Source of the DNA: Alloascoidea hylecoeti
Lineage: Eukaryota
Direction of reading: 5' to 3'
Assembly: GCA_001600815.1 (NCBI GenBank)
Contig: BCKZ01000002.1
Coordinates: forward strand, 1,620,294 to 1,684,293
Length of the DNA: 64,000 nt
Shown: positions 1-63,375 of the stretch, piece after piece
How the letters are laid out: each line of letters starts with the position of its first letter
Position numbering within the stretch: the first letter of the stretch is position 1
The notes under the pieces: model-generated
Database searches by the model: none
The model's input: the letters and a program-made list of their open reading frames with translations, nothing else
What the model was told of the DNA's origin: nothing
Program-made: the position numbers and the translations under genes

Positions 1-482
1 TAGCATGCTCTTAACAAAAACGTCGGGGTTTTGTTAAGGATGTGGGAATTTTCACGATTATTCATTATAACCATTGGAACTTTTTGGATTTCACGGAATA
101 TCATGATGTTTTATTAATATGAATGAATATTTGATATTAGACATAGTCTCCAAATCTGGTAACAATACGGGCCGTTTGTAACGGTGCGTCTTCCTGTAGT
201 GTGTCTCGAAATATGACAGACCGTCGGGTCTTTCCCGTATATCGGGTACGCACTATAAAAACTCCATAATTCCATGATAATAGTCATCTCTTCTTCCTCC
301 ACAATCTTCTTCAAGTCTTCCTTCGAGTATTCTTTGAAGTATTCTTTGAAGTATTCTTAAAACTGTATCTACAATCGGTTATTGTATTCTTATTGGGATT
401 CATCTTGTCTTCTGTCTACAATCCAGAAACGTTTAATCCAATTATCAATCTTCTACCGTTTTCAAATCTACAACACAACAAA

Positions 483-1505
483 ATGGTTAAAGTCGCAATT
501 GCTGGTGCTGCCGGTGGCATAGGACAGCCCCTTTCTCTCCTATGCAAACTTTCTCCTTATATCTCGGAACTCTCCCTTTATGATGTAAGAATGTCAGTCG
601 GTGTAGCTACTGATTTATCCCATATTCACACAAAGGCAAAGGTTACTGGCTTTTTACCAGACAATGATGGCATGCAAAAAGCTTTCTCCGGTTCTGATTT
701 GGTTATTATTCCGGCTGGTATTCCACGAAAACCAGGTATGACAAGAGATGCTCTTTTTAATATTAATGCTGGTATAGTTAGAGATCTTGTCACAGGTGTC
801 GCCAAATATGCTCCAAAAGCTTTTATCCTAATTATTTCAAACCCCGTTAATTCAAATGTCCCAATTGCTGCCGAAATATTAAAGAAATATGGTGTGTTTG
901 ACCCAAAAAGGTTATTTGGTGTTACAACTCTTGATGTTGTTAGATCTGAAACTTTTATCGCACAAATTGCCAATCCTTCACAACCTGATCCTTCTAAATT
1001 TAATGCTCTTGTTGTTGGTGGTCATTCAGGGGAAACAATTGTTCCTCTTATCTCTGCTACTGCCCCCGAAATATATTCTGAATTAGTAAAGAACTCAGAA
1101 GAACTTGCCGCGTTAATTAAGCACATTCAATTTGCTGGTGATGATGTTGTTAAAGCAAAAGATGGTGCTGGCTCAGCAACACTTTCAATGGCATATGCCG
1201 GATTTAAGTTTGCCAACTCAATCTTAAAAGCAATCTCTGGTGAAAAGAATATAATTGAACCTACTTATGTTCATTTGGAAGGTATTGAAGGTGGTAAAGA
1301 AGTTGCTGCTAAACTAGGTGTCAAATATTTCACACTTCCTGTTGAATTAGGACCAGAAGGTGCTCACTATATTAAGAATGTCTTAAACAATGTTTCAAAA
1401 CAAGAGGAAAAACTATTAGAAATTGCTCTTGATAATTTGAGACCAAATATTGAAAAAGGTGAAAAGTTTATATTGGATCCACCTGCTCCAAAGAGTAAAC
1501 TATAA
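483..1505 (+). CDS. MDH3: NAD-dependent malate dehydrogenase, peroxisomal (PTS1 -SKL), 340 aa
   Basis: [20 protein letters not shown]ossmann start, [25 protein letters not shown] and VGGHSG motifs; ends PKSKL. First ATG is at 483 (the ORF track starts at an upstream TTG). Confidence 0.95.
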
Positions 1506-2651
1506 TGTTATGTCAATGTTTTATTATATTCCATATATTTGCAATTACAATTGCAACCTATCGTATAGACATATATTGGTCTAATGTATTATGCGTTTTA
1601 TAATTCTAGATCTTCATAGTTATTTTTCTTTTTTTGTTGAGTGCCTATCTTTTATTTTTATTTGTGATAATTATAATTATGGTTAAATAGGGAAAAATAA
1701 GAAAATAGACGTACTTTTTAGATATAAACTATTGTTTGTCACGTTATAAACTAGATAAAAATGAAAACAATCCCTTTTCAAGTTTAAGCGCTGGCTACGA
1801 CGTAAGCGTTCAATGGCCATAAAACCATATAGCCCTATACCAGTATATGACCTTTACTCGGCTGATCAAGAGTGAATCCTTCCAACGCACCATATATTTC
1901 GGTTTCCAACTTCAGAATTAATGGTGAAAATATTCATTTATTTCTTGTAATCTGTAAATCTCAATAGCTTAATATTGAATACAGTAAAAGTTGCTAGCTA
2001 ATTATAAATATCAATGGTAAAAAATCATCCACACAAAGTACTTTTATATAAATCTGAAGAAGCAGCCAGATATTCGTGTGTGATAAGACCGATGGTTATT
2101 TATAACGGCTGACAATTTAATCTCGTCAATTATTATAGTGTAATTCGCAGGATGACAACTCAGCTCATAATTTATAAAATATGAACCGTTNTACTTATTC
2201 TAAAATTTCATACCTAATTATATTTATTAAAGAAGTCAACTATATATTCTTTATGTATTATATCTCGTGAGGAGTGGAACAGTTAATTGATGAGTAGTTT
2301 CTTTTACATTTTTTATTTAAATTTCACAAATGTCAGAGTAAGATATGTTGTGGTAGTTTCTACGCTTGTTCTCAGTTATAGGGAATTTAATTTCATGGAT
2401 CCAATTAATATTTTATTATAAACTATTTAACTTATAACTAATATTGATATATATTCTTTCATTTATTTACTTATTTATCATATCGGATAATAACAAATTT
2501 GAATTTATGAACATTATTATGTTCATTTATGATTGAAAAATTATTTATATTTAAGATATAATCTCGCTTTACTTAATATTTTGTTATAAACTATTTAACT
2601 TTATAATTTTATATCGTAATTGCAATAAGTTCCTTTATTTATTTCTGTATC

Positions 2652-5030
2652 TTTTTTTTTTTTTCAAGTGGCCATTACGGCTCTATATTAAACTGCTTTT
2701 TCTATAAATACTATATTTATAACAACCAAAAAATCGTGAAAATAAAAAGACCTATTGCTAGGCAAAAATACCTATTACTAATGTTATAGGTTCACTCTTT
2801 TTTGAGTAATGTTGTTACATTTTATAGTATTATTACCACCTTTTCCAACTTCTTACTCAATCAATACGAATAAAGGATGTAAGTAATATTTATACATCTT
2901 TCCTCTTTTTCTTTTTTTGTCCATAGAACCTAAGTGGTTCAGAACAAAACTTTGTGGAGTCCCTTTCAATCATTTTACATCATTGTGATACTGATAAACT
3001 ATTCTCCTGTTGATAATATCTTCTGTGATATTTTCTAACTAAAAAAACGGTTACCGCTCTTAATATTAATTCTTTTCTTTCCTTATGATTAAAATCAAGA
3101 AAAGATTTAACTTCAATTTCCTTTTCTTTTAGTTCTATCACTTTTTGGTTATAGGACCATATTTTCTTTGTAATTTCACATGTAGAGAAAACATGTTCGA
3201 AGGATAATTCCAACTTTTCACAGCAAGGACATCTTTTGTCTTTAAGGTTGTTGTAAAAATGTAAAAATGAACCCCTGCAAAATATTTGGTATTCATCTAT
3301 AACGTTTGATACATATAGGTTATTTTTGTGGATTGTTTTCCATAGCAAACCCCATCTATTGACTCCAATTTTGTAGGTTTTTTCCATTTCTTTTGGTACT
3401 AATACATTTTGGTTTGCTTTGAAAAAACTTTTACAGATGCTCCTACAACTGAATTTGTCGAGGACTTCATTTTGTGGACCAATAAAGTCCTCTAGTTTTA
3501 AAATTTGGGTTTTGCTGATTTATCTATCAATTCCATGGATTGATTGAATTCTTTAATTGACCATAAACTTTTATTTTTAATATATTGTTGGTTTATGTCA
3601 CCAACTTTTGTGGTGTCCCAGAAATGGGCTAAATATGTGTTCCAGGGCTGGATTATTTTGAGGTTTTGTTTGAAGCATTGGAGTTGTTCATTTTCTGTCG
3701 AAAAATTTTCATGAAGATATTTATTATTGATTAATAACATTTGATCCCAATCCAGGTGTAATAAATTATCATTTTTAGCTTTCTTTTCTTTTTCCATTAT
3801 TTTATTTGCCGATATTGAGGCTTTTACCCCATGAAATGTCATTTGTTCCCTGATTGTGTTGGAGATCCTCATCGTCATTGGTTAGTAATGATGATAAATG
3901 ATAGTAATGACGGCCTTTCTGTTGAACCATTAGGTCTATCTGACCATAACCTGCACTCTTTGCAGGAGTCGTCAACACTTTGAGCGATACTTGTCTATAT
4001 GTACCTATATTATTTTTAGTTATTTTCATAATGTCGTTCAAGATACCTTTTGGGGATGGAATAAATTCCATAAGAAAAAGCGTCTTGGACAGAACGTAAA
4101 TATTTACTATGATGCACCTCGTTCGTATGTTATTATGATGGTGAAATAAAAAATCCAACCTTGATTTAATATTGTTAATCATCTCTTCCCAGATTTTTCC
4201 GGGGTTCACGCCTCTACCCATTTTTATTCCCAAATATTTGAAACTGTTTACGACTTCAAACTTGTATATTGGTGATTGATTATTTATAGAACGCTTGGTG
4301 TCCATTGGAAAGTATATTTTTGTTTTCCCAGCATTAACTACCGAACCAGATGAACGTTTGTAAAGAGATAGTGCCCTATCAAGGAAGTCTTCGCCGTCTC
4401 TGGAATTAATTAAAATTGATAATTCGTCGGCAAATAGGCTCACTTTAAGTGAGCGGAGGGTTTTTATAGCTGATATAGACACACCCTATGTTGTAAGTAT
4501 TGCGATAACGGCTCGATCACCAAAGCGAATAAACTCGGCAAGAGGACTTCCTTGGCGCAGCCCAGACTGTAAAGGGAAAGATCTGGACTGGACGCCGTTT
4601 ATGAGCACCGGTCCTGTTTGGTTTGTGATAGACCCATAACAGCGTTTATAAAATGAGGATCCAGGCCTAAATGTTCAAGAACTCTGTGTATGTATTCAAT
4701 GCCTAACATATCATAAGCCTTTGTAAAACCTACCAGGATGAGCGCCTGGTGTGGGTTCCGGCTAATAAACTTAGTATCTGGATCAATGAATAACTGGCTA
4801 AGGTGAATATTGGTCGATATAGATCTCCCAGGAATAAAGGCCGTTTGATGCTCCGACACAATCCCTTTTATTACTGATTGGAGTCTAATGTTTAAAATCT
4901 GGTGTATGATTCTTATGTCTGAGTTAAGTATAGCTATGGGGCGATTACCATTTATGTCACCTTTTTTGGTCTTATCCTTCAGTAATCAAAAGAAAGTTCC
5001 AATAACTTCCTGACCTGGGACACTATAGGT
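2652..5030 (-). mobile_element. 5'-truncated, frameshifted L1-clade non-LTR retrotransposon (ORF2 RT + C-terminal Zn knuckle + poly(A))
   Basis: Minus-strand pieces in order: NRPIAILNSDIRII..QTAFIPGRSI, ILVGFTKAYD, GLRQGSPL, LFADE (YADD equivalent), FKYLGI, CPCC..FEHVFSTC. T13 at 2652-2664 is the likely poly(A) tail. Several frameshifts and stops. Confidence 0.87.
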
Positions 5031-5055
5031 GAAAAAAATCTTTTCTTGTAAAAAT

Positions 5056-5140
5056 TGATCCGGCCGAGGATCGAACTCGGAGCCTCCTCGGCACGCATAA
5101 TAATGTGAACGAGACGTGATAACCTTTACACCACCGGACC
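5056..5140 (-). tRNA. tRNA-Val(CAC) with 12-nt intron
   Basis: GGTCCGG/CCGGATC acceptor stem, TCTCG-TT-CAC-A[TTATTATGCGTG]C-CGAGG anticodon arm, CCGAG-TTCGATC-CTCGG T-arm, T5 terminator; 73 nt after splicing. Confidence 0.95.
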
Positions 5141-5164
5141 TGTTACTTTTGATCTGGGGGAACT

Positions 5165-5590
5165 AGTTAGTCAACCCTCTTATGAAAGTAAAGTTATATC
5201 ATCAAATCCAAATAATAAATTCAAAGAGCGATTGATTACATACTTGAAAGCGTGGAGAATCATAATCAATAATAAAAAGAAGAGATATATACCAGCTACA
5301 GATACGGTACCAAAAATAGCTAATGAAGCATTACAAAAACTGGTGGAAGAACCAGCAGATGAAGATATCGAAAAAAGAAAAAGACATGGAGGAAATAAAC
5401 AAAAACATATCCAAATACTCGATTAAATCAATAACCCAGAAGTGGTATAATAAAAACAAAATTATATTGAAACCAAACAAATGGATGCAGTTAATTCCGG
5501 AACTAAAAGATGAAAATTGGAAGAAATGGTGGGAATTTATCAAAGAAACATACAAGGAACACCCTGAGGAGACACATTTGCTTAACTTGA
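5165..5590 (+). mobile_element. Non-LTR retrotransposon ORF2 C-terminal fragment
   Basis: Overlapping frameshifted ORFs 5232-5426 and 5323-5607. KWMQLIPEL..NWKKWWEFIKETYKEHPEETHLLNL resembles the Trp-rich pre-knuckle segment of the neighbouring LINE (WGLLWKTIHK..EYQIFCRG). Ends approximate. Confidence 0.55.
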
Positions 5591-6269
5591 GTAAATCACT
5601 CATATAGCGCCATACTAAAAATCGTCTACCTTCTACTTATCTTTATATTTCATTTATATTCTATTATGTTCTCATTTTATATAAACCACCTTTAAATTTT
5701 TATTTATTTGTTGATGGTATCAAAAATTTGCTGGTATAGATTGCAATATTTGTTTTTTTCAACTTTAGAGGTCACTTGGAAGGAAATCCTCTTCACAGAC
5801 GAACACATTAGTTAGTAAGACAACAGTGTGGAGATTCAGTCCGTTTGGATAAATCTAGGCGGGAAAGTTGGTTTTTTTTTAACTTTTCATAAATTTTCCA
5901 ATTAAATTATATAACTAGAAACTTTGTAAATTCTGAGGAAATCTCTACTATATATAGTGAAATAAAAACCTCTCTTTCTATTCTTCTTATTTTTGTGTAT
6001 TCTTGACACTCTTCTTTCTTCCCTTCTTATGTACCTAGACCGCACATTTAATATCTTATTATGTTTATTACTTCTAGAACTTTTCCTATTAATAGCTTTT
6101 GGATTTATCTATATAAACGTAAGATAAATCCCACTTTAAAGGAAGGGAGGTGAGCTTTAATACATTTTTCCTGTTTAAGATCTTGATCGTTATCTGTATA
6201 TGATTTCGCCAGTTACATCTACTGTAAGCTATTAAGTCATTAGTAGCTTACTTTACAAAAAAAAGTTCG

Positions 6270-6341
6270 GCCGTTGTAGTATAGTGGTCAGTACACATCG
6301 TTGTGGCCGATGAAACCTCAGTTCGATTCTGGGCAACGGCA
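6270..6341 (+). tRNA. tRNA-His(GUG)
   Basis: GCCGTTG/CAACGGC acceptor stem, CATCG-TT-GTG-GC-CGATG anticodon arm, GTTCGATT T-loop, followed by a T-run terminator; closely matches yeast tRNA-His. Confidence 0.97.
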
Positions 6342-6370
6342 ATTTTTTTAACTTTTTCTACGCTTGCTAG

Positions 6371-6827
6371 GTGGTATTGAAAATGAAAATAACCCTAGTT
6401 CCAAGGAAAAATGGAAGAATAAACCAATGCATATTGTGTCTAGAAACCGAGGAGCACATATTCAATCAATGTAGAATAAAGACAATAATATTTGAACATT
6501 TTATGGGAAACGATTATCAACTAAATGAAATGATTTGTGATTCCACAAGAAACACAAATGAATTAATTCAAATCAACAATATAGGAGAGGCAATTAGAAA
6601 CTTGAGAAACAGAAGAAGATTCGGAACAACAACATTAGAATCAACGGACAAAGAACTTTTAACTGCAGCGAAAGCTGAAATTAGAAGAATCAATAATCAG
6701 TACAAATTTATAAATCTTTATTTCAATCAAAAAAAATTAACTTTCTATAAATCAAATTTAATAGTCTAGCTTAAATAGTTATATTTTTGATATAAAATAG
6801 TGTCTGGGAAAAAAATATAAAAAAAAA
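6371..6827 (+). mobile_element. 3' end of a non-LTR retrotransposon (ORF2 Zn knuckle + A-rich tail)
   Basis: CILCLETEEHIFNQC knuckle typical of the L1-clade ORF2 C-terminus; stop at 6769, short UTR, A-rich tail 6809-6827. Confidence 0.7.
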
Positions 6828-6829
6828 GT

Positions 6830-7130
6830 TGTTCGTTGTCATAATCGTTGAAAGCATACCAAGGTTGGGACAAGTAATCAACAGCGACAGATGCATTGGT
6901 CTTTTGATTGGGAGTCTTTTTTATGACAGTTGAGTTTTCCATGGGTCAAACCACTGTATTACATTTGACGCAATAACGTTTGGCCTAACCTGAAGTTTGA
7001 ATGAGTGATTCCTTTGAATTATTGTCCTTCAAGGGTAGTTGCAAATTAATCTCTTTAGGAATAATTGACGGGATTATTGAGTACTTCTTTCAAAATAATT
7101 GTTTGATTAACTTCGTTTGTTTCATTTTAC
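6830..7130 (-). mobile_element. Possible LINE ORF1 (gag-like knuckle) relic
   Basis: IIPSIIPKEINLQLP...YCVKCN then (frameshift) GLTHGKLNC, giving a CxxC..H..C knuckle; stops present. Confidence 0.3.
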
Positions 7131-7622
7131 CCAGACCTGAATGGGTGGCAAGATAATACTCAAGTAGGAATAAATAATTTAATTTAGAGCCTCTGTGGCC
7201 ACTTTAAAAGAAGAAAATATATATATAAGCTTATGAAGATATCAATTAATATTGGAAAACTCGTTATATTACTAATAACAACGAGAGATACCTTTAACTA
7301 TACGAATATTAATGTTTTTTAGAATATCTAGATACCTTTAATTAGTAGTTGGATATAAGCATTTTGAATATAAATTAAAGTCCTAAGGTAAAAGAAAGTA
7401 ATAATTAAATAATATAGTACTCCAAAATATCCTTCATTTAATTCAAAGTATTGCTCCATATATATAAACAAAAAAAATGTTAGGAAATAATTGGAGAACT
7501 CAAATTGAATTTAAGATATTTCATTAGAAAGTATAAGGTTAAATCAAAATTATTCACAGGTCATAAATTATTTTGTTAAGTACTATTGTTTTTATTTTTT
7601 GTTAAATTTTGTTTTAAGAGAA

Positions 7623-9190
7623 TCAAATAGTTATTGATTTATCATCCAAATTCATATATGTATCAATCATAGCATCAATAGCATAAGTAATAGGGTTTGT
7701 TGATTCTGTAAACTTCATCCCACCAGCGAATTCATTATTTAAAGTACAAGCTTCAAGAGTTTGTGAAACACCTTCTAAAAACCACATTCGATCTTTCATT
7801 CTTGATGTATAAGTTTGTAAAAATTTATAATAAACAATTAATATTCTATGCGAAGCTCCATCACCATTATTAAGTAATTGTAAAAATCCTTTATCTAATA
7901 AAGCTGGAAATGAGAAGATCCTCATCATGAAATCTGGTCTATATTGCTCATGTATAATTTTATCGAGGTATGCCAATGTTAAAAAATACGGAGATCCAAA
8001 TCTTAATGGGTAAAGATCAGCAAGAAGGGGATCAAGACATTCAAATTTTAATTCAAGGTTTGGATCTTCTAGAGCCAAATCCCCCAAATCTCCTAAATCA
8101 ATTGAAATGATTTGAAAAAATCGAGATTGTATTGTTAAAGGCCAAACAGATGTTAGGATTGTAGCAGCTCCCCTTACATGATATATCCATGTTGAAGCAG
8201 GCAACGATTTGAGTGATATTGAAGAAGGAGGTGATGCATTTGCTAATGAATCCATAATTAACAACAAAGCGGTTGCTACAATAGCGTCTGTCCCATCTAA
8301 ATCTTCATTAGATATATATTTAACGGCATCTCTTAGTAGTCTTAAAGCCTGACCTCTGTGGTCAACCACATATTGACCATATATTGGTTCTGACCTTGCT
8401 AAATGGGTTGCTGAAAATGCCAACATCGCATGTAATAAAAAAGGATTATGAAATGCTAATTCTGTTATTTCGGTTTGCCAAACGTCTAATGTAGATAAAC
8501 CAGCGGCAGCTATTGTTTGGCATACTTTATTCGAATAGTTGAACATTAATCTTAAATCTATTAGATTAAGTCCCGGAGAAAATGTGGTATTAATGTCAAA
8601 TAAATCTTCGGCTGTTTGCGTCTGTTGATCTATAGACGAGCCATTTCCCGTAAAAATTGACGGAGATGTTATGTTATGGGTAATGGCTAGGTGATTGGTA
8701 TTTGCTGTTTTCGCTATTGGTGGAGGTGTCTTATAAACACAACCAATCCCTAAATGTTGACAATTCTTACACGAAGGCTTGGATTCATCACACTAACACT
8801 CATTCAAAAGTTAATTTTCTTTGGCTCTTGCTCTCTTGAGATCAAAAAATATAACAATTATATTATTCTTACCTTAACTCTTCTTCTTTTACAAGTATCA
8901 CAGCCAAGTCGGGATTTTTGATGGAATCTTTTCTTCTTGGCCCCACCTTTTCTTTTATTTTGTGTGGTGTCATTGTTACTTGATTGTGTAGGACTACCAG
9001 TAGTTGATGCTGCATCATCACCATTTTTCTCCTGTTTTATTCTAGATTTCTTTGTAGAAGGTGGTGAAGTAGTACTTGAACCATCACCATTAGAAGAAAA
9101 TTTTCTTTTGTTTGAATCTAAATTCTCCATAATTGTATCGGATTTAATAGTTTGAGCGTTTTCTGTTTCTCTTTTAGAAATTTGTTCCAT
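7623..9190 (-). CDS. UPC2: Sterol-regulatory Zn2Cys6 transcription factor Upc2/Ecm22; join(9190..8873,8792..7623), ~495 aa
   Basis: 80-nt intron (GTAAGA..ATTAAC..TAG) splits the cluster CDTCKRRRVK|CDESKPSCKNCQHLGIGC; C-terminal domain PFLLHAMLAFSATHL..LLIMDSLANAS matches Upc2. Confidence 0.92.
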
Positions 9191-9335
9191 TATTTCAACT
9201 TTTTAGACACATGATCTTGTGGGGCTTGACGAAAGTCCGAACTTTTTAAGAAGTGGTTATCGCAACACCCGTTCACCTAAATATATGTCCGAAGTTATTG
9301 ATAATGGAACGGGTAACCTCGATTGATTGGAGAGG

Positions 9336-9727
9336 ATGGTGAGTGGAGTGAGACCGTTTTATTTTAAAATTATTGTTTCATCCAGATGAGCTAATGGGTA
9401 CAAATTTTATAGAGCATTAATATTGATAAAGTTGTGGGTGCCGGAATGTTGGGTGTTGCCACTGCTGTCTTTGTGTATTATACCATTTGGACCATAATTT
9501 TAGTAAGTGATTACATCTTTTCAAATCTATATTTCTTTTACTAACATGAAATGTATTAGCCTTTTGTTGATGATGATAATCCAATCCAGAATTTCTTCCC
9601 ACCAAAAGAATGGGCCATACGAATCCCGGTCATGCTTTTGCTGATGTTCATCGGAATAGTAGGAACATTTATTGGAATTGTTTTAGTTCGTTCAGCCAAA
9701 AAAGAAAAATTACTCAAACGTAAATAA
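9336..9727 (+). CDS. DPM2: Dolichol-phosphate mannosyltransferase subunit 2; join(9336..9338,9413..9502,9560..9727), 86 aa
   Basis: M|SINIDKVVGAGMLGVATAVFVYYTIWTIIL|PFVDDDNPIQNFFPPKEWAIRIPVMLLLMFIGIVGTFIGIVL..; introns GTGAGT..GCTAAT..TAG and GTAAGT..TACTAAC..TAG. Not in the ORF track. Confidence 0.9.
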
Positions 9728-11275
9728 TTTCTTCCTCTATTAAATTCCCTAATCATTAACTATCGGGAAGAACGGAAATGAAATATAGTATAATAGAGCT
9801 TTTTTTATTTTATTAATTAAATTAGTGAATATTTGTTAGAAATGTACCTTTTGTTCCCTATAACCGCTCCATAGTCTTTCTATGACCACTTTAAATCAAT
9901 ATTTATAGGTTAGAATTAGGAGGTTATAGATAGTTAATAATATTAATGCATTAAACGCACTACAACAGCAATAAATAATCGAACTTGTATAATTTGTTCA
10001 ATTTGTAATTAAAGGTTATATTAAGAAAGTTATAACTTTTTAGCTCTTGTATGCTCAACATATCTATAGTCTATAAACTACTATAGCTACTAGAAAACTT
10101 CTGATTATTGAGATAAGTGTTCGAATTTATCCTCCACTTTATTAAAATTTTCATCTTGAGATTCTTCTGAAGATATCGAGTTAAATATGACTCTATATTG
10201 CTAGAGAGAGAGGGTTCCTCGATTAAATGAAAATCAAAAATCCAGGCTTTTCAAAAATTTCTAAGAATTCGAAACAAAAATTAAAAAAACATAAACCTAT
10301 GTATTTTTATGGATCTTCAGATCCTCTATTGTAGCAACTCTTCTCACGGTTGCAGTGTCGTACTGATAGGCTTTTTTTGAGCTGAAATGTATTTCTTCAG
10401 TCATTTCCTTGAGCTTTATTAGATCTTCTGTAATATAGGTAGTGCCTGCAACGATCGTCGTTACGCCAGTTAAGGACCTTGGCGAAAGCTTTGTCATCTT
10501 TACAGGTAAATTACTGATGAAGTTGTGATCTGAGTAAAGTATTTCCAATATGACCCCAGCTTTATCTTCTTTCACTAGCATCTCACACTATCTTATTAAC
10601 TGTAAGTATTTTCCATGGATGAATTTATAAAGTGTCACTTCACCTCCTGAGCCCTTTTATTCTCAGGTGGGATGTTTTCCTTATCTTTTAACTTGTTGAA
10701 ACCAGGATCAAATGAATAGATATTAGATACGTATACCGTTATTTACGAACGAGATGTGATGCATTTGGCTATTGATAATCCTAATGTTCTCGCCCTTATA
10801 TAAATAAGATTAACTTTTGGAGCCTTTGCGATTGAGACTCTGCCCAGTAAAAGTCCAGAGTTCCTAAATATTGTTTTTTGGTATGCAAGCGGCATCATAG
10901 TTGAATAAAAGATATTAAGTTTTACGCGTCGCACTTTTTGGAGATGAATTTTCCCTTAGCCAAAAAACCTACATCCGCTTTATTTGTATAATTATTAATA
11001 TTTAGAAGTTATGATGCTATTTCTCTATTTGACAACTTCAGTCTTAATACCTTGCCCATCACTAATGATGTGCAACATAAGATATTAGGTAATGCGAGGT
11101 AGTGTGCTGAGTAATAAAGATTGAAAAATTAAGGCTGTGGTCATTCCAAATTTTGGAAAATTATAATTCCAAAATGGCTAAAGTAAACGCCGACGTTACC
11201 GGCAAACACTGCATATCTATATAACCTTATAATTATACTGATGACTATACTAAAACTTCTCCGTTTCGCCTGGTA

Positions 11276-29398: not shown

Positions 29399-30798
29399 TC
29401 AAGATAGTCTCACTTCAAAGGGTGAAATGATCAAATTATAGTCATCTAGAATTGAAAGTGGACTATAAGATTCCAGATCCTTTATATTTGAATGCATATT
29501 ATCAACAATGTGATAGAAATATCCATTTAGAAGACATTTGACATTGAATTCATCATCTATATACCAACTATCAATTTCTCTATCATTTGAAGTTGGAATT
29601 GGAGAATTATGACATTGAATAGTTTCATTTTTCAAATCAATTAAAATTTTAAATAAAAACCCTAAGCTTGAAGTATATTCATAAACAGCCATAATGAATC
29701 TTCCATTATATGAATCTGATATTTTACACATCTTACACTCAGCATTAGGTATTCCATAATCTGAAAAATCAATCAGATTTGTCCAATTATTATTACTCTC
29801 AAAATTTGTTTTAATGTTTTTTTGGTTATCAACGAAATTATAATTATTAATTGAATATTTGTTCCTAGATGGAGAACGGTTTAATTCCCCAATAATATCA
29901 AAAATATTCTGGATCTATATCATATTCTCAGTAAAATAAAATATGTGTGATTCATTAACAGAAATTTCAATAACCATATCCTCATAGTCGGAGGTTGGGA
30001 GAATTGATTGCAAATTTAGAGATCCTAACTTTTTTCCGTTGGATTTATTCAATACAATAAGTTTCGTTATACTTTCTGATTTAGCAAATTTATAACATAC
30101 TAGGGATCTATCTGAGGTTACATAAAAGTAATCTCTATCAGTTATAAGTTGATATTTGAGTTTCAAATATTTCTCTACAACTGAATTAGTAAAATATACA
30201 TGGAAATCTTGTTTGATTGGTATCTTTACACCTAATCCTTCAACCTTAATCGTTTGTGAGCTAAGTCTCCAAACGGAATCTTCACTGTACGAGTTCGGAA
30301 TTCTATTGTCATGTGTCCATTTGTAACACCTTTGTCCCCACTAGCACTTTTTTTTTTTCAATTCTAACTCTTTGTCCAATGAATCTTCTATACTTAATAT
30401 TGAATAATCGAGGTCCAGTTTTTTTTTTTTTCATTGACCTCTCCGCCGTTTAGAGTTATATAATAATTGGGTTTTAAATTCAAAACTAAAGAAAATCTTG
30501 AGCTTAAAGAAAGACAAGACTTTGGAGGTTTGAATTGTTTCCTATTTGTATCTTCATTATAAATAATTTCTGGCTCATTAACTATATTATCATCAATGAC
30601 AGGACTAATTGAAAAGGTAAAAACAACGTTCATCAATCTTTGCTCAATAATTTTAATAACTTGGACTTTGCCTTGATAATATCTTAGATTCTCCGAAGGA
30701 TCAATAGGAGATTGACCAAAAGGACAGGCAGCTAAGCTTAGTGATGAGTTGAATGTTGAATAGAGACTTTTACATGTTCTCGATAAGATTGAATATTG
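29399..30798 (-). pseudogene. Decayed F-box family gene (copy B; start codon and most of the F-box deleted)
   Basis: Colinear DNA homology to 53724-55270; begins at QYSILSRTCK; frameshifted pieces 30394-30636, 29915-30166, 29399-29731. Confidence 0.75.
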
Positions 30799-31767
30799 AA
30801 AAGAGAGAAGAGTAAGTACTTATATAGCATTTGTTTGATTTAAGATTATCAATATCAACTTGCTCCAGAATATTTATTATAGTGTCAAACTCCAACTAGA
30901 AAGCTGTAGGAGTGGTCATTGACACAATATACGAACATATTGTTCTGAATACAACAGATTTAAATAGTAAAACATTTCATTTTAAATTCAATGTAACGAA
31001 TCCTTGGACTTTTCTATTGGAGCTTGGTACTATAATCTGGAACAATTGATTTATAAATCAGAACCAGAAAACCTTAAAGATTACTATCTCAATATTAAGA
31101 ACAAATTACAAAGATAATACTGTAAATATAAAAGGAATAACAAAACACAATAAAGTATAAATAACGCAAGATGGTACTTCACTATCATCAATAAAACTGA
31201 CTCCTTGGAAATATGATAAGGTTTAAACCCAGGAATTGAATATATTTGTGAAAAAATTTTCGATAGGAGGGCACTCATCTATTGAATATATGGGTCCTAC
31301 CGGCGTTACTTCATATATGTGCCAGAGCAATTAAAAGCATCAATAAACTGGAACTTTTGAATGGACCATATTATAGAGTTACTTCAGGTGTTAAGAGGCT
31401 TTCCAAGATTGTACCTATTCTTAGCATTAATGAAATCGTGGAAATGGTGAATTACGCGAAGAACATAACCTCCATCTCTATGACGTATTCCACATGGTGA
31501 TAACGTTAACGACGCCAAAGACTTCTGAAATCTATAAAAAAAATAACCACTAGATTTTCCTGTGTCTCTAAAGATATTTACATTTTACATATATTCACAC
31601 GCACTTAATTGGATTTAACGTTAAAAAGAATACCATCTATCTCCTTGTCACAAAACCAATTCATCGCCATTCCGGCTATAAAAGATAGGTATTCCCCTAC
31701 TTTAATATGTGACCCTGAGACCCTAACCACTATACCCTCAACCCCATAGAACTCGAATGATTTAGCA

Positions 31768-62243: not shown

Positions 62244-63375
62244 TCAAGTGGTCTTAGTTGTCAATTTAGTGTTTTTCTTGGCTTCAGTCTCTTCTTCTTC
62301 ATCACTATCAGCAACCAAAAATGGGTCATGGTTATCAATTGAGGTAGGCTCAACAGCATTTAAAGGCTCCCATTTACTTCCGGACCCAATCTTAGTGATA
62401 GGTTTAGGAGCAGGTGCAACTTCAGGTGAGGATAAAGCAGTTGGTTTAGTGGGTCTTTTTGGTTGGGAAGGAGGATCATCATCAACCAACTTAATTTGAC
62501 TAAAATCAGAATTTAATTCTTCGGGATCATGATCAAAGTTATTACTTCTTCTTGGCTTATTAACATTAGTTCTATAAGATCCATGAGTTACGCTTGTGTC
62601 GTTTGACTCTTCACCAAAAGCATCAAAAAGTTTTGGAGGTTGAGAAGATTTTGGTCGTTGATGCTGTTGAGATCCTTGATTAGATTGCTCGTGATATAAT
62701 TGAGTATCATCATCATCTTCAAATTTTTTCCTTAAACTTGTCATCCAATTGTTAATTTTAGTGCTTGTCTCTTGTACACCTTTTTGGAATTGTTCCTTCA
62801 ACTGTGGTAAATCATGTTCAAGGAAACTAGATTCTTCTTGGTTGTTTGTGTGATGGCGGTCAGTTCTTTGATTTCCATACAAATCACTGTATTGCTCTCT
62901 CTCAGGTCTTTCCTGTCGAGTTTCTTGGGCATACTGCTTTGCTAAACGACGAGCTAGTCTTTCATCTTCATCTATTTGAGGATCCAAATAGTTTGATCTA
63001 GGGAGTGGTTGAGGTGGCAATATTTCTGGTTTATAGGATGGATCAGACAAAACTATAAAACGACACATGTTAATTATAAACAAATCAATACTTTTGAATC
63101 AAAATAATGAACATACACAGTAGACCATTGAAAGCAGGATCAACTTTACCTCTGCTAGCAATTAATAAGGCCTTAATATATTTCTCTTCTATGTTTGGGA
63201 ATGCCTCTTTTAGTGTTTGGGTTGATTTAGAGAGTGGAGACAATGGACGGGGTGGCTTCGGTGGCCCTTCTGGTGATGCTTCAACTTCAGGAGTCACCTC
63301 TGCCGCAATTACAGGCGATGCTGGTTCGGGCACATTTTCTGTAGATACAGGAGTCGATTTTGGTTCTTCACTCAT
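62244..63375 (-). CDS. CUE5: CUE-domain ubiquitin-Atg8 adaptor; join(63375..63117,63052..62244), ~355 aa
   Basis: LKEAFPNIEEKYIKALLIASRGKVDPAFNGLL|FLSDP across a 64-nt GTATGT..ATTAAC..TAG intron; QIDEDERLARRL; C-terminal WEPL AIM-like motif. Confidence 0.9.

Follow-up and report, generated by a model that had tools for sequence, protein, structure and literature searches.

L1-like LINE relics beside the two tRNA genes of an Alloascoidea hylecoeti locus: possible tRNA gene–directed integration in a fungus

A stretch of 64,000 nucleotides from the fungus Alloascoidea hylecoeti (GenBank assembly GCA_001600815.1, contig BCKZ01000002.1, positions 1,620,294 to 1,684,293 of the forward strand), referred to here as the window, contains the remains of three long interspersed nuclear elements (LINEs), named LINE-A, LINE-B, and LINE-C. 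The window has two tRNA genes, and each of the three pieces found there is no more than 76 bp away from one of them, with its truncated 5′ end turned toward that gene. The observation is real and represents more than chance at this locus. The reading we favor, to which we assign a probability of about 0.45, is that several L1-like families integrate in this fungus in a tRNA gene–directed manner resembling that of the TRE3 and TRE5 elements of Dictyostelium. We regard this interpretation as plausible; it would be a novelty among fungi, and it is drawn from a single locus.

Both tRNA genes, the only ones in the window, are found in a 6-kb non-coding region between a malate dehydrogenase gene (ending at 1505) and a transcription-factor gene (starting at 7623). 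Their coordinates and those of the neighboring elements are collected in Table 1. The tRNA-Val gene was missed both by default ARAGORN and by Rfam at gathering filters; with permissive filters its Rfam score exceeds the gathering score of 29. Because an intron-bearing gene can be overlooked in this way, intron-blind scans would undercount the tRNA genes of this genome. On its own strand, the tRNA-Val gene is followed by a T5 run (5050–5054) and a T7 run (5032–5038), and downstream of the tRNA-His gene there is a T7 run (6343–6349) followed by a T5 run (6353–6357). The junctions of the two downstream elements, LINE-A and LINE-C, each lie just beyond two such T-runs, which resemble terminators used by RNA polymerase III (Pol III).

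Table 1. Features around the two tRNA genes, in window positions. Summed contig depth in run X1 is a rough proxy and not a copy number.
Feature	Position	Strand	Basis	Summed depth, X1
tRNA-Val(CAC), 12-nt intron at position 37/38	5056–5140	−	aragorn -i; Rfam with permissive filters, 47.5 bits, E = 1.5e-8	
tRNA-His(GTG)	6270–6341	+	ARAGORN; Rfam, 63.4 bits	
LINE-A, dead 5′-truncated L1-like ORF2 relic	2652 to ~5030	−	Pfam, 51-relative profile, read-through alignment	
LINE-A, 3′ end	2585–3235			1,370–2,040
LINE-A, middle	3236–4103			436–645
LINE-A, 5′ part	4104–4971			122–290
LINE-B, probable ORF2 fragment from just before the knuckle	~5204–5607	+	Weak profile match, pairwise alignment, contig depth	
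LINE-B, depth interval	5189–5622			620–1,035
LINE-C, ORF2 3′ end of a different family	6371–6827	+	Profile, tblastn, frames, contig depth	
LINE-C, depth interval	6274–6924			400–660
Repeat R, very abundant, ~386 bp	5872–6257		Contig depth; contig breaks	
Exact 14-nt direct repeat TTTTTTTAACTTTT	5874–5887 and 6343–6356	+	Sole two exact copies in the 64 kb, both strands searched	
A8GTT, exact 11 nt, candidate target-site duplication	6257–6267 and 6820–6830	+	Brackets tRNA-His and LINE-C	

The identity of the three pieces was established mainly with a profile of 51 full-length relatives (1190 positions), which was run over all 1,309 stop-to-stop open reading frames (ORFs) of at least 25 amino acids in the window. 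LINE-A spans profile positions 549–1131, with E values ranging from 4e-50 (the next being 2.7e-32) to 7e-11. Since the match is spread over five frames, the element must carry at least four frameshifts; it also contains one in-frame stop (4986–4988). It retains the reverse transcriptase (RT) from motif 1 onward, the thumb, a CCHC knuckle of the form CX2CX8HX4C aligned to that of the relatives, a 3′ untranslated region (UTR) some 315 bp long, and an A13 tail, which appears as T13 on the plus strand at 2652–2664. Pfam recognized RVT_1 above its cut-off at 4599–4985 (E = 3.8e-8), together with weak matches to RVT_1 at 3802–4485 and to zf-RVT at 2980–3519 (E = 0.0036, below the cut-off). LINE-C consists of an open frame of 132 codons (6371–6766), followed by a short 3′ UTR and then by a tail that reads A7-TAT-A9 (6809–6827). 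Its frame matches profile positions 1062–1161 (E = 1.7e-8) with the knuckle, here CX2CX5HX4C, aligned, and residues 861–958 of an RT protein from [Candida] subhashii (P0097) match it in tblastn (E = 0.001).

LINE-B is less strongly supported. Its plus-strand frame at 5320–5604 matches profile positions 968–1043 (E = 0.017), and a neighboring frame (5109–5423) gives a collinear, very weak match to positions 935–956 (E = 6). Pairwise alignment with the C-terminus of LINE-A scores 57, a value reached by a fraction of 0.006 of 500 shuffles. The fragment has one frameshift and neither knuckle nor tail, and contigs place the end of its repeated part at about 5576–5622. Pfam found no family in LINE-B or LINE-C. 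The original prediction, made from the letters of the DNA, had described three LINE ORF2 pieces belonging to at least two subfamilies. LINE-A and LINE-C agree well with that description, and LINE-B is probably a LINE piece as well, on the weaker statistics just given. The proposed plurality of subfamilies was borne out: the two knuckle regions differ (CPCC..FEHVFSTC versus CILC..EEHIFNQC), and the three pieces show no mutual blastn or tblastx similarity, indicating independent insertions of distinct families. The profile search returned no further credible LINE piece among the 1,309 ORFs, the sole other row being 62247–63098 at E = 0.61.

The class assignment is based on more complete relatives. 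A HMMER search with a 227-residue piece of LINE-A gave 175 proteins at E ≤ 0.001, many of about 1,190 residues and about 30% identical to it. RVT_1 was present in all eight of the relatives that were scanned and an apurinic/apyrimidinic-type (APE-type) endonuclease, Exo_endo_phos, in four of the eight. A profile of 12 relatives matched human LINE-1 ORF2p at 2.3e-97, far better than it matched R2 (2.8e-38); the 227-residue piece alone had no match in the Protein Data Bank at E up to 1. All three pieces in the window are truncated before the N-terminal APE-type endonuclease domain, and LINE-A and LINE-C, the two with poly(A) tails (A13 and A7..A9), both start inside ORF2. By the LINE-type RT of LINE-A, the CCHC knuckles and poly(A) tails of LINE-A and LINE-C, and the 5′ truncation, the pieces would be classed as L1-like, the placement in the L1 clade being derived from the profile of the relatives and not from a tree. 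Word-indexed protein searches found no longer copies of the three elements, which is weak evidence. A search with the C-terminus of LINE-A found no other copies among metagenome, prokaryote-genome, and viral contigs, and an ESM Atlas search gave no usable match for LINE-B.

Public sequencing runs provided further evidence on the locus. Four runs contained 79–85% of the sampled words of window positions 1–10000, and their contigs were placed on positions 1500–8000; two of the runs come from one sample of an organism, a third is of that organism in a separate study, and the fourth (X2) is a wood-decay metagenome. The summed contig depth was used only for repeated status and for the gradient along LINE-A. 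The unique flanks have summed depths of about 54–84 in run X1. Relative to these, LINE-A rises from 2–5 times at its 5′ end to about 22–33 times at its 3′ end, LINE-B stands at 10–17 times, with loose contig ends at 5204 and 5576, and LINE-C at 6.5–11 times; the other three runs repeat this pattern. All three LINE families look multi-copy, and the rise in LINE-A toward the 3′ end is the 5′-truncation gradient typical of LINEs. One contig that covers 4883–5259, from the 5′ end of LINE-A through the tRNA-Val gene to the start of LINE-B, was found with zero differences in three runs (X1, X2, and X3), which shows that the junctions among these three features are real and not an artefact of assembly.

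Two side observations emerged from the same material. Just past the tail of LINE-A there is a 34-bp direct repeat, 94% identical (2405–2437 and 2573–2606), and the bin 2368–2584 has a depth of about 4 times that of the flanks; another low-copy repeat may abut LINE-A there. Run X2 contained 83% of the sampled words of positions 1–10000 and long contig pieces (1500–2567 and 6754–8000) with 0–3 differences, pointing to the presence, in wood-decay samples of this type, of the same organism or one nearly identical to it.

The arrangement of the LINE pieces beside the tRNA genes forms the core of the argument. LINE-A lies downstream of the tRNA-Val gene and LINE-C downstream of the tRNA-His gene, each co-oriented with its neighbor; LINE-B lies upstream of the tRNA-Val gene in divergent orientation, so that its 5′ end faces the 5′ end of the tRNA gene. 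The orientation, fixed in three of three pieces, refers to this locus only. The profile alignment of LINE-A starts at about 4985 with its envelope reaching further, placing the 5′ end somewhere in 4986–5055 and the gap to the tRNA gene at 0–70 bp. For LINE-B, the alignment starts at about 5217 and the 5′ end falls in 5141–5217 (a gap of 0–76 bp); in another genomic copy the similarity breaks off at 5204. For LINE-C, the alignment starts at about 6407 and the gap is bounded at 0–65 bp, and an in-frame stop at 6368–6370, just before its frame, suggests a start about 29 bp after the tRNA-His gene. The tRNA coordinates in the original prediction are exact, and the strands and profile matches reproduce the orientations it had described. 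It had also put the three gaps at 20–30 bp, with boundaries near 5030, 5165, and 6371. The closeness holds within the bounds given above; the boundaries themselves are not fixable to the base, and gaps of that size are plausible.

How often such an arrangement would arise at random was estimated with a model of three independent insertions, each required to fall within 80 bp of a tRNA end in the right orientation. This model was set up post hoc and takes the insertions to be independent; it gives probabilities of about 1.8e-8 for the window as a whole and about 1.8e-4 for the intergenic region alone. The favored reading rests on these facts together: three families share polarity and closeness to only two tRNA genes, and nothing comparable occurs elsewhere in a window that is mostly non-coding. 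The upstream, divergent position of LINE-B adds to its support, as it lies beyond what a chimera formed by template switching (discussed below) can produce. We infer that the closeness reflects targeting and that the same pattern would recur genome-wide. The favored reading also draws on 79 metagenome loci (332,562 bases) of distant L1-like relatives, in which no tRNA gene was found, although this count says nothing about the families of the window.

The mechanism we envisage would be as follows. Several LINE families that are APE-type, CCHC-knuckle-bearing, and poly(A)-tailed would insert preferentially right beside active tRNA genes. LINE-A and LINE-C would have inserted just past the Pol III terminator, co-oriented with the tRNA gene, in the geometry of TRE3, and LINE-B a few dozen bases upstream of the tRNA-Val gene, divergently, in the geometry of TRE5. 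In each case the variable, 5′-truncated end would abut the tRNA gene and the poly(A) end would point away from it. The likely route is recognition of the TFIIIB/TFIIIC/Pol III complex or of its chromatin by a protein of the element, which would then be followed by ordinary target-primed reverse transcription. The ORF1 protein of TRE5-A, for comparison, recognizes TFIIIB.

Several points weigh against this reading. First, the sample is tiny: both tRNA genes belong to a single intergenic region of 6 kb, the insertions may owe something to a local hot spot, and the random-placement null was framed after the data had been seen. Second, each junction can be placed only to about 70 bp, the identity of LINE-B depends on weak statistics, and its 3′ end is missing. 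Third, a search for target-site duplications found no clean one around any LINE by itself. For LINE-C, 82% of random windows equal or exceed its best match; for LINE-A, 13 bases out of 15 agree in the best match (p ≈ 0.08), which lies partly in possible ORF2 coding sequence. This match, 5011–4997 against 2634–2620, was set aside as a duplication of LINE-A since the ORF2 frame probably still runs through its 5′ copy. Fourth, the protein searches recovered no full-length copy, ORF1, or endonuclease domain of the three families, and no empty site, that is, a joint cleanly skipping a LINE piece, was found in the four runs, whose contigs show presence and not absence. Finally, the known yeast LINEs use other targets, namely poly(A) tracts and subtelomeres according to the accessible part of PMC7175516. 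The original prediction of convergent Pol III gene targeting stands in its anatomy and orientations, which are those of TRE3 and TRE5, and is limited by its dependence on two tRNA genes in one region.

Among the alternatives, the one that survives best, although we consider it unlikely, is that no specific targeting took place and that the neighborhood of the tRNA genes is a tolerated dumping ground for transposable elements (TEs), an A/T-rich hot spot, or a product of chance. LINEs with an L1-like preference for nicking T/A-rich DNA would then have landed or survived there, and the tRNA-facing ends would be a coincidence to which later deletions contributed. Yeast tRNA flanks are classic nests of TEs through Ty-type long terminal repeat (LTR) elements, as described in the available portion of PMC5911963; runs of A and T abound in the region, which also contains another repeat of high abundance, repeat R. 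The later 3′ deletion of LINE-B shows a rearranged locus, and the uncertainty of the junctions also leaves room for this reading. What it fails to explain is that no LINE piece occurs elsewhere in the window, where only 12 ATG-initiated ORFs of at least 150 amino acids are found in 64 kb, and that all three pieces share one polarity at such short distances, which random placement within the intergenic region seldom yields. Moreover, an L1-type nick at the terminator T-run would predict the opposite orientation, to judge from the preference of the L1 endonuclease; on the same ground the T-run was rejected as an L1-type nick site. This reading keeps the weight that it has because the evidence comes from two tRNA genes at one locus.

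Less probable still is that tRNA-Val with LINE-A, and tRNA-His with LINE-C, each represent one inserted unit, formed when the LINE RT jumped from LINE RNA to a nascent, unspliced pre-tRNA during target-primed reverse transcription, as in mammalian U6/L1 chimeras; the original prediction did not consider this rival. The tRNA genes would then be copies dispersed by LINEs and not targets. The downstream, co-oriented geometry is exactly that of a U6/L1 chimera, in which a complete small Pol III RNA is fused, close to its 3′ end, with the co-oriented 3′ part of a 5′-truncated LINE and its poly(A) tail. The tRNA-Val gene keeps its intron, and both junctions lie just after T-runs. Precedents come from the parts of the literature at hand: Zorro3 switches templates to other RNAs in Saccharomyces cerevisiae (PMC3956500), pre-tRNA retropseudogenes and fungal chimeras are cited in PMC4476161, and LINE-mediated spread of tRNA genes has been speculated for Yarrowia (PMC5014426).

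On the point of a duplication around the whole unit, the two cases differ. The A8GTT repeat around tRNA-His and LINE-C is exact, is matched in score by 1.3% of 2,996 random 38-bp windows of the window (p ≈ 0.013), and recalls the insertion of Zorro3 into poly(A) tracts described in the consulted section of PMC7175516. As one of four tests and mostly an A-run, it does no more than suggest a duplication that might bracket the two as one unit. No bracketing duplication was found around tRNA-Val and LINE-A (best score 12, p = 0.66). In addition, between tRNA-His and the open frame of LINE-C there are about 20 bases that come after a T7 run, where Pol III should stop, and that close with an in-frame stop. 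A chimeric origin also leaves LINE-B and repeat R on the upstream sides unexplained and needs two independent events from two families 1.2 kb apart. The probability not taken up by targeting, chimeras, and a hot spot or chance is left to readings so far unthought of. Two further candidates were rejected outright: a tRNA-headed short interspersed nuclear element (SINE) made of tRNA-His and LINE-C, in which the T7 terminator separates the head from the body, and a LINE that the tRNA-Val/LINE-A unit had cut in two, with LINE-B as one half, for which no matching upstream ORF2 part exists left of 2652.

Repeat R, which ends 13 bp upstream of the tRNA-His gene, is a separate element of the same region. 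It starts with T9 (5872–5880) and ends in TTTACA, and its depth relative to the flanks is about 230 times over 5840–6056 and about 22 times over 6057–6273. Its left end is constant, with 13 contigs breaking at 5872 in run X1; its right-hand ends vary (5993, 6025, 6041, ~6212, and 6257), and head-to-tail joints are present. No similarity was found between repeat R and the 3′ ends of the LINEs. Repeat R has one of two identities, a solo LTR or, on the minus strand, a poly(A) retroposon that would turn its 5′ end to the tRNA-His gene. The constant left end, the variable right ends, and the head-to-tail joints fit the retroposon; the position and the plus-strand TATA and AATAAA motifs speak for a solo LTR of Ty3-like type. 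The left end does not show a clear TG...CA. The two copies of TTTTTTTAACTTTT bracket the body of repeat R together with the tRNA-His gene, the second copy being the terminator directly after that gene. A related motif, AAAAGTT/AACTTTT, recurs at 5864–5869, 6261–6267, and 6824–6830.

A broader proposition can be formulated from these elements, and we hold it slightly more tentatively than targeting itself. A budding-yeast-like fungus may have independently evolved Pol III–directed LINE integration, in TRE3-like geometry for LINE-A and LINE-C and in TRE5-like geometry for LINE-B, with repeat R as a non-autonomous poly(A) retroposon mobilized to that same position upstream. If so, no non-LTR system that targets tRNA genes would have been described before outside Amoebozoa, and this one would have a host open to genetic study.

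The surroundings of the locus are those of a fungal chromosome. The window is AT-rich (30.6% G+C) with ordinary genes, and a Pfam scan of 26 larger ORFs across it found ordinary fungal families in 11 of them and no TE family. Given such neighbors, the description of the host as a yeast in the original prediction is plausible. Besides malate dehydrogenase, the genes include a fungal-specific transcription factor, a PKH-type kinase, a Pal1 protein, a Ras GTPase, a GATA factor, and a chitinase with GH18 and CBM19 domains. Coding density is low for a yeast, with long AT-rich intergenic stretches (for example, ~18.7–25 kb, 26.4–34 kb, and 45.8–56.3 kb), and several ORFs of 100–170 amino acids at 29402–30819 belong to no Pfam family. 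The transcription-factor gene, on the minus strand, seems to be divided into two open frames (7626–8792 and 8861–9202), of which the upstream one has a Zn2Cys6-like cysteine pattern by eye; the gap of about 68 bp between them is probably a short intron. Single N bases occur at positions 2191 and 19384.

The habit of inserting beside tRNA genes is, to our knowledge, known in yeasts only for LTR elements with an integrase. If the favored reading is true, a fungal LINE that reaches Pol III genes through target-primed reverse transcription would represent a further independent origin of this safe-haven strategy. The mechanisms of Ty3/Ty1 and of TRE elements could then be compared in one kind of host, and a programmable, site-directed LINE for yeast genetics might become possible. 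If instead the chimeric origin is true, the locus would document that LINEs have dispersed tRNA genes of functional appearance in a fungus, so far only speculated for Yarrowia.

The original prediction also held that no tRNA targeting by yeast LINEs is known, and this gap seems real as far as the sources extend. In the text available from PMC5911963, dictyostelids are the only hosts listed for non-LTR elements that target tRNA genes (TRE5, TRE3, NLTR-A, and NLTR-B), and insertion downstream of tRNA genes is stated for dictyostelids alone. The corresponding part of PMC7175516 assigns Zorro3 to poly(A) tracts and Zorro1/2 to subtelomeres, and among the open-access full texts searched there was no report of a fungal non-LTR element at tRNA genes. 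From what is available of PMC5006619, tRNA targeting evolved repeatedly in compact genomes, which counts in favor of the reading we prefer.

Four known systems can be compared with the elements of the window. First, TRE3 and TRE5 of Dictyostelium belong to the APE type and possess RT, a zinc finger, and an oligo(A) tail; TRE5 inserts upstream in opposite orientation, as LINE-B does, and TRE3 has the orientation of LINE-A and LINE-C (PMC5911963 and PMC5006619, in the portions available). The host here is a fungus and not an amoeba, and the likeness comes from one locus. The distances in the window also appear shorter, at 0–70 bp downstream and 0–76 bp upstream compared to 40–150 and about 44–54 bp in the accessible descriptions of the TREs. 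Second, Zorro of Candida albicans and Ylli of Yarrowia lipolytica are yeast members of the L1 superfamily with poly(A) tails and many 5′-truncated copies, and one relative of the LINE-C C-terminus is from [Candida] subhashii. No tRNA association is reported for Zorro or Ylli in the parts of PMC7175516 and PMC5014426 that describe them. They are likened here by description; sequence identity to any of the full-length relatives found is only about 30%. Poly(A) on both sides, as at Zorro3 insertions, is absent from LINE-A and LINE-C, whose 5′ sides consist of T-rich terminator sequence; A-runs occur on both sides only of the composite of tRNA-His and LINE-C.

Third, U6/L1 and pre-tRNA chimeras, as described in the section at hand of PMC4476161, likewise join a whole Pol III RNA head-to-tail to the 3′ part of a 5′-truncated LINE with poly(A). 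In true chimeras, a duplication brackets the whole unit, whereas here only tRNA-His has a suggestive one and tRNA-Val has none, and template switching does not account for the upstream elements. Fourth, LTR elements of the Ty3 type use tRNA genes as safe havens in yeasts, and the 13 bp between repeat R and the tRNA-His gene come close to the 15–17 bp expected for Ty3-like LTRs from the available text of PMC5014426. LINE-A, LINE-B, and LINE-C differ from these elements in being of the non-LTR type, which integrates by target-primed reverse transcription.

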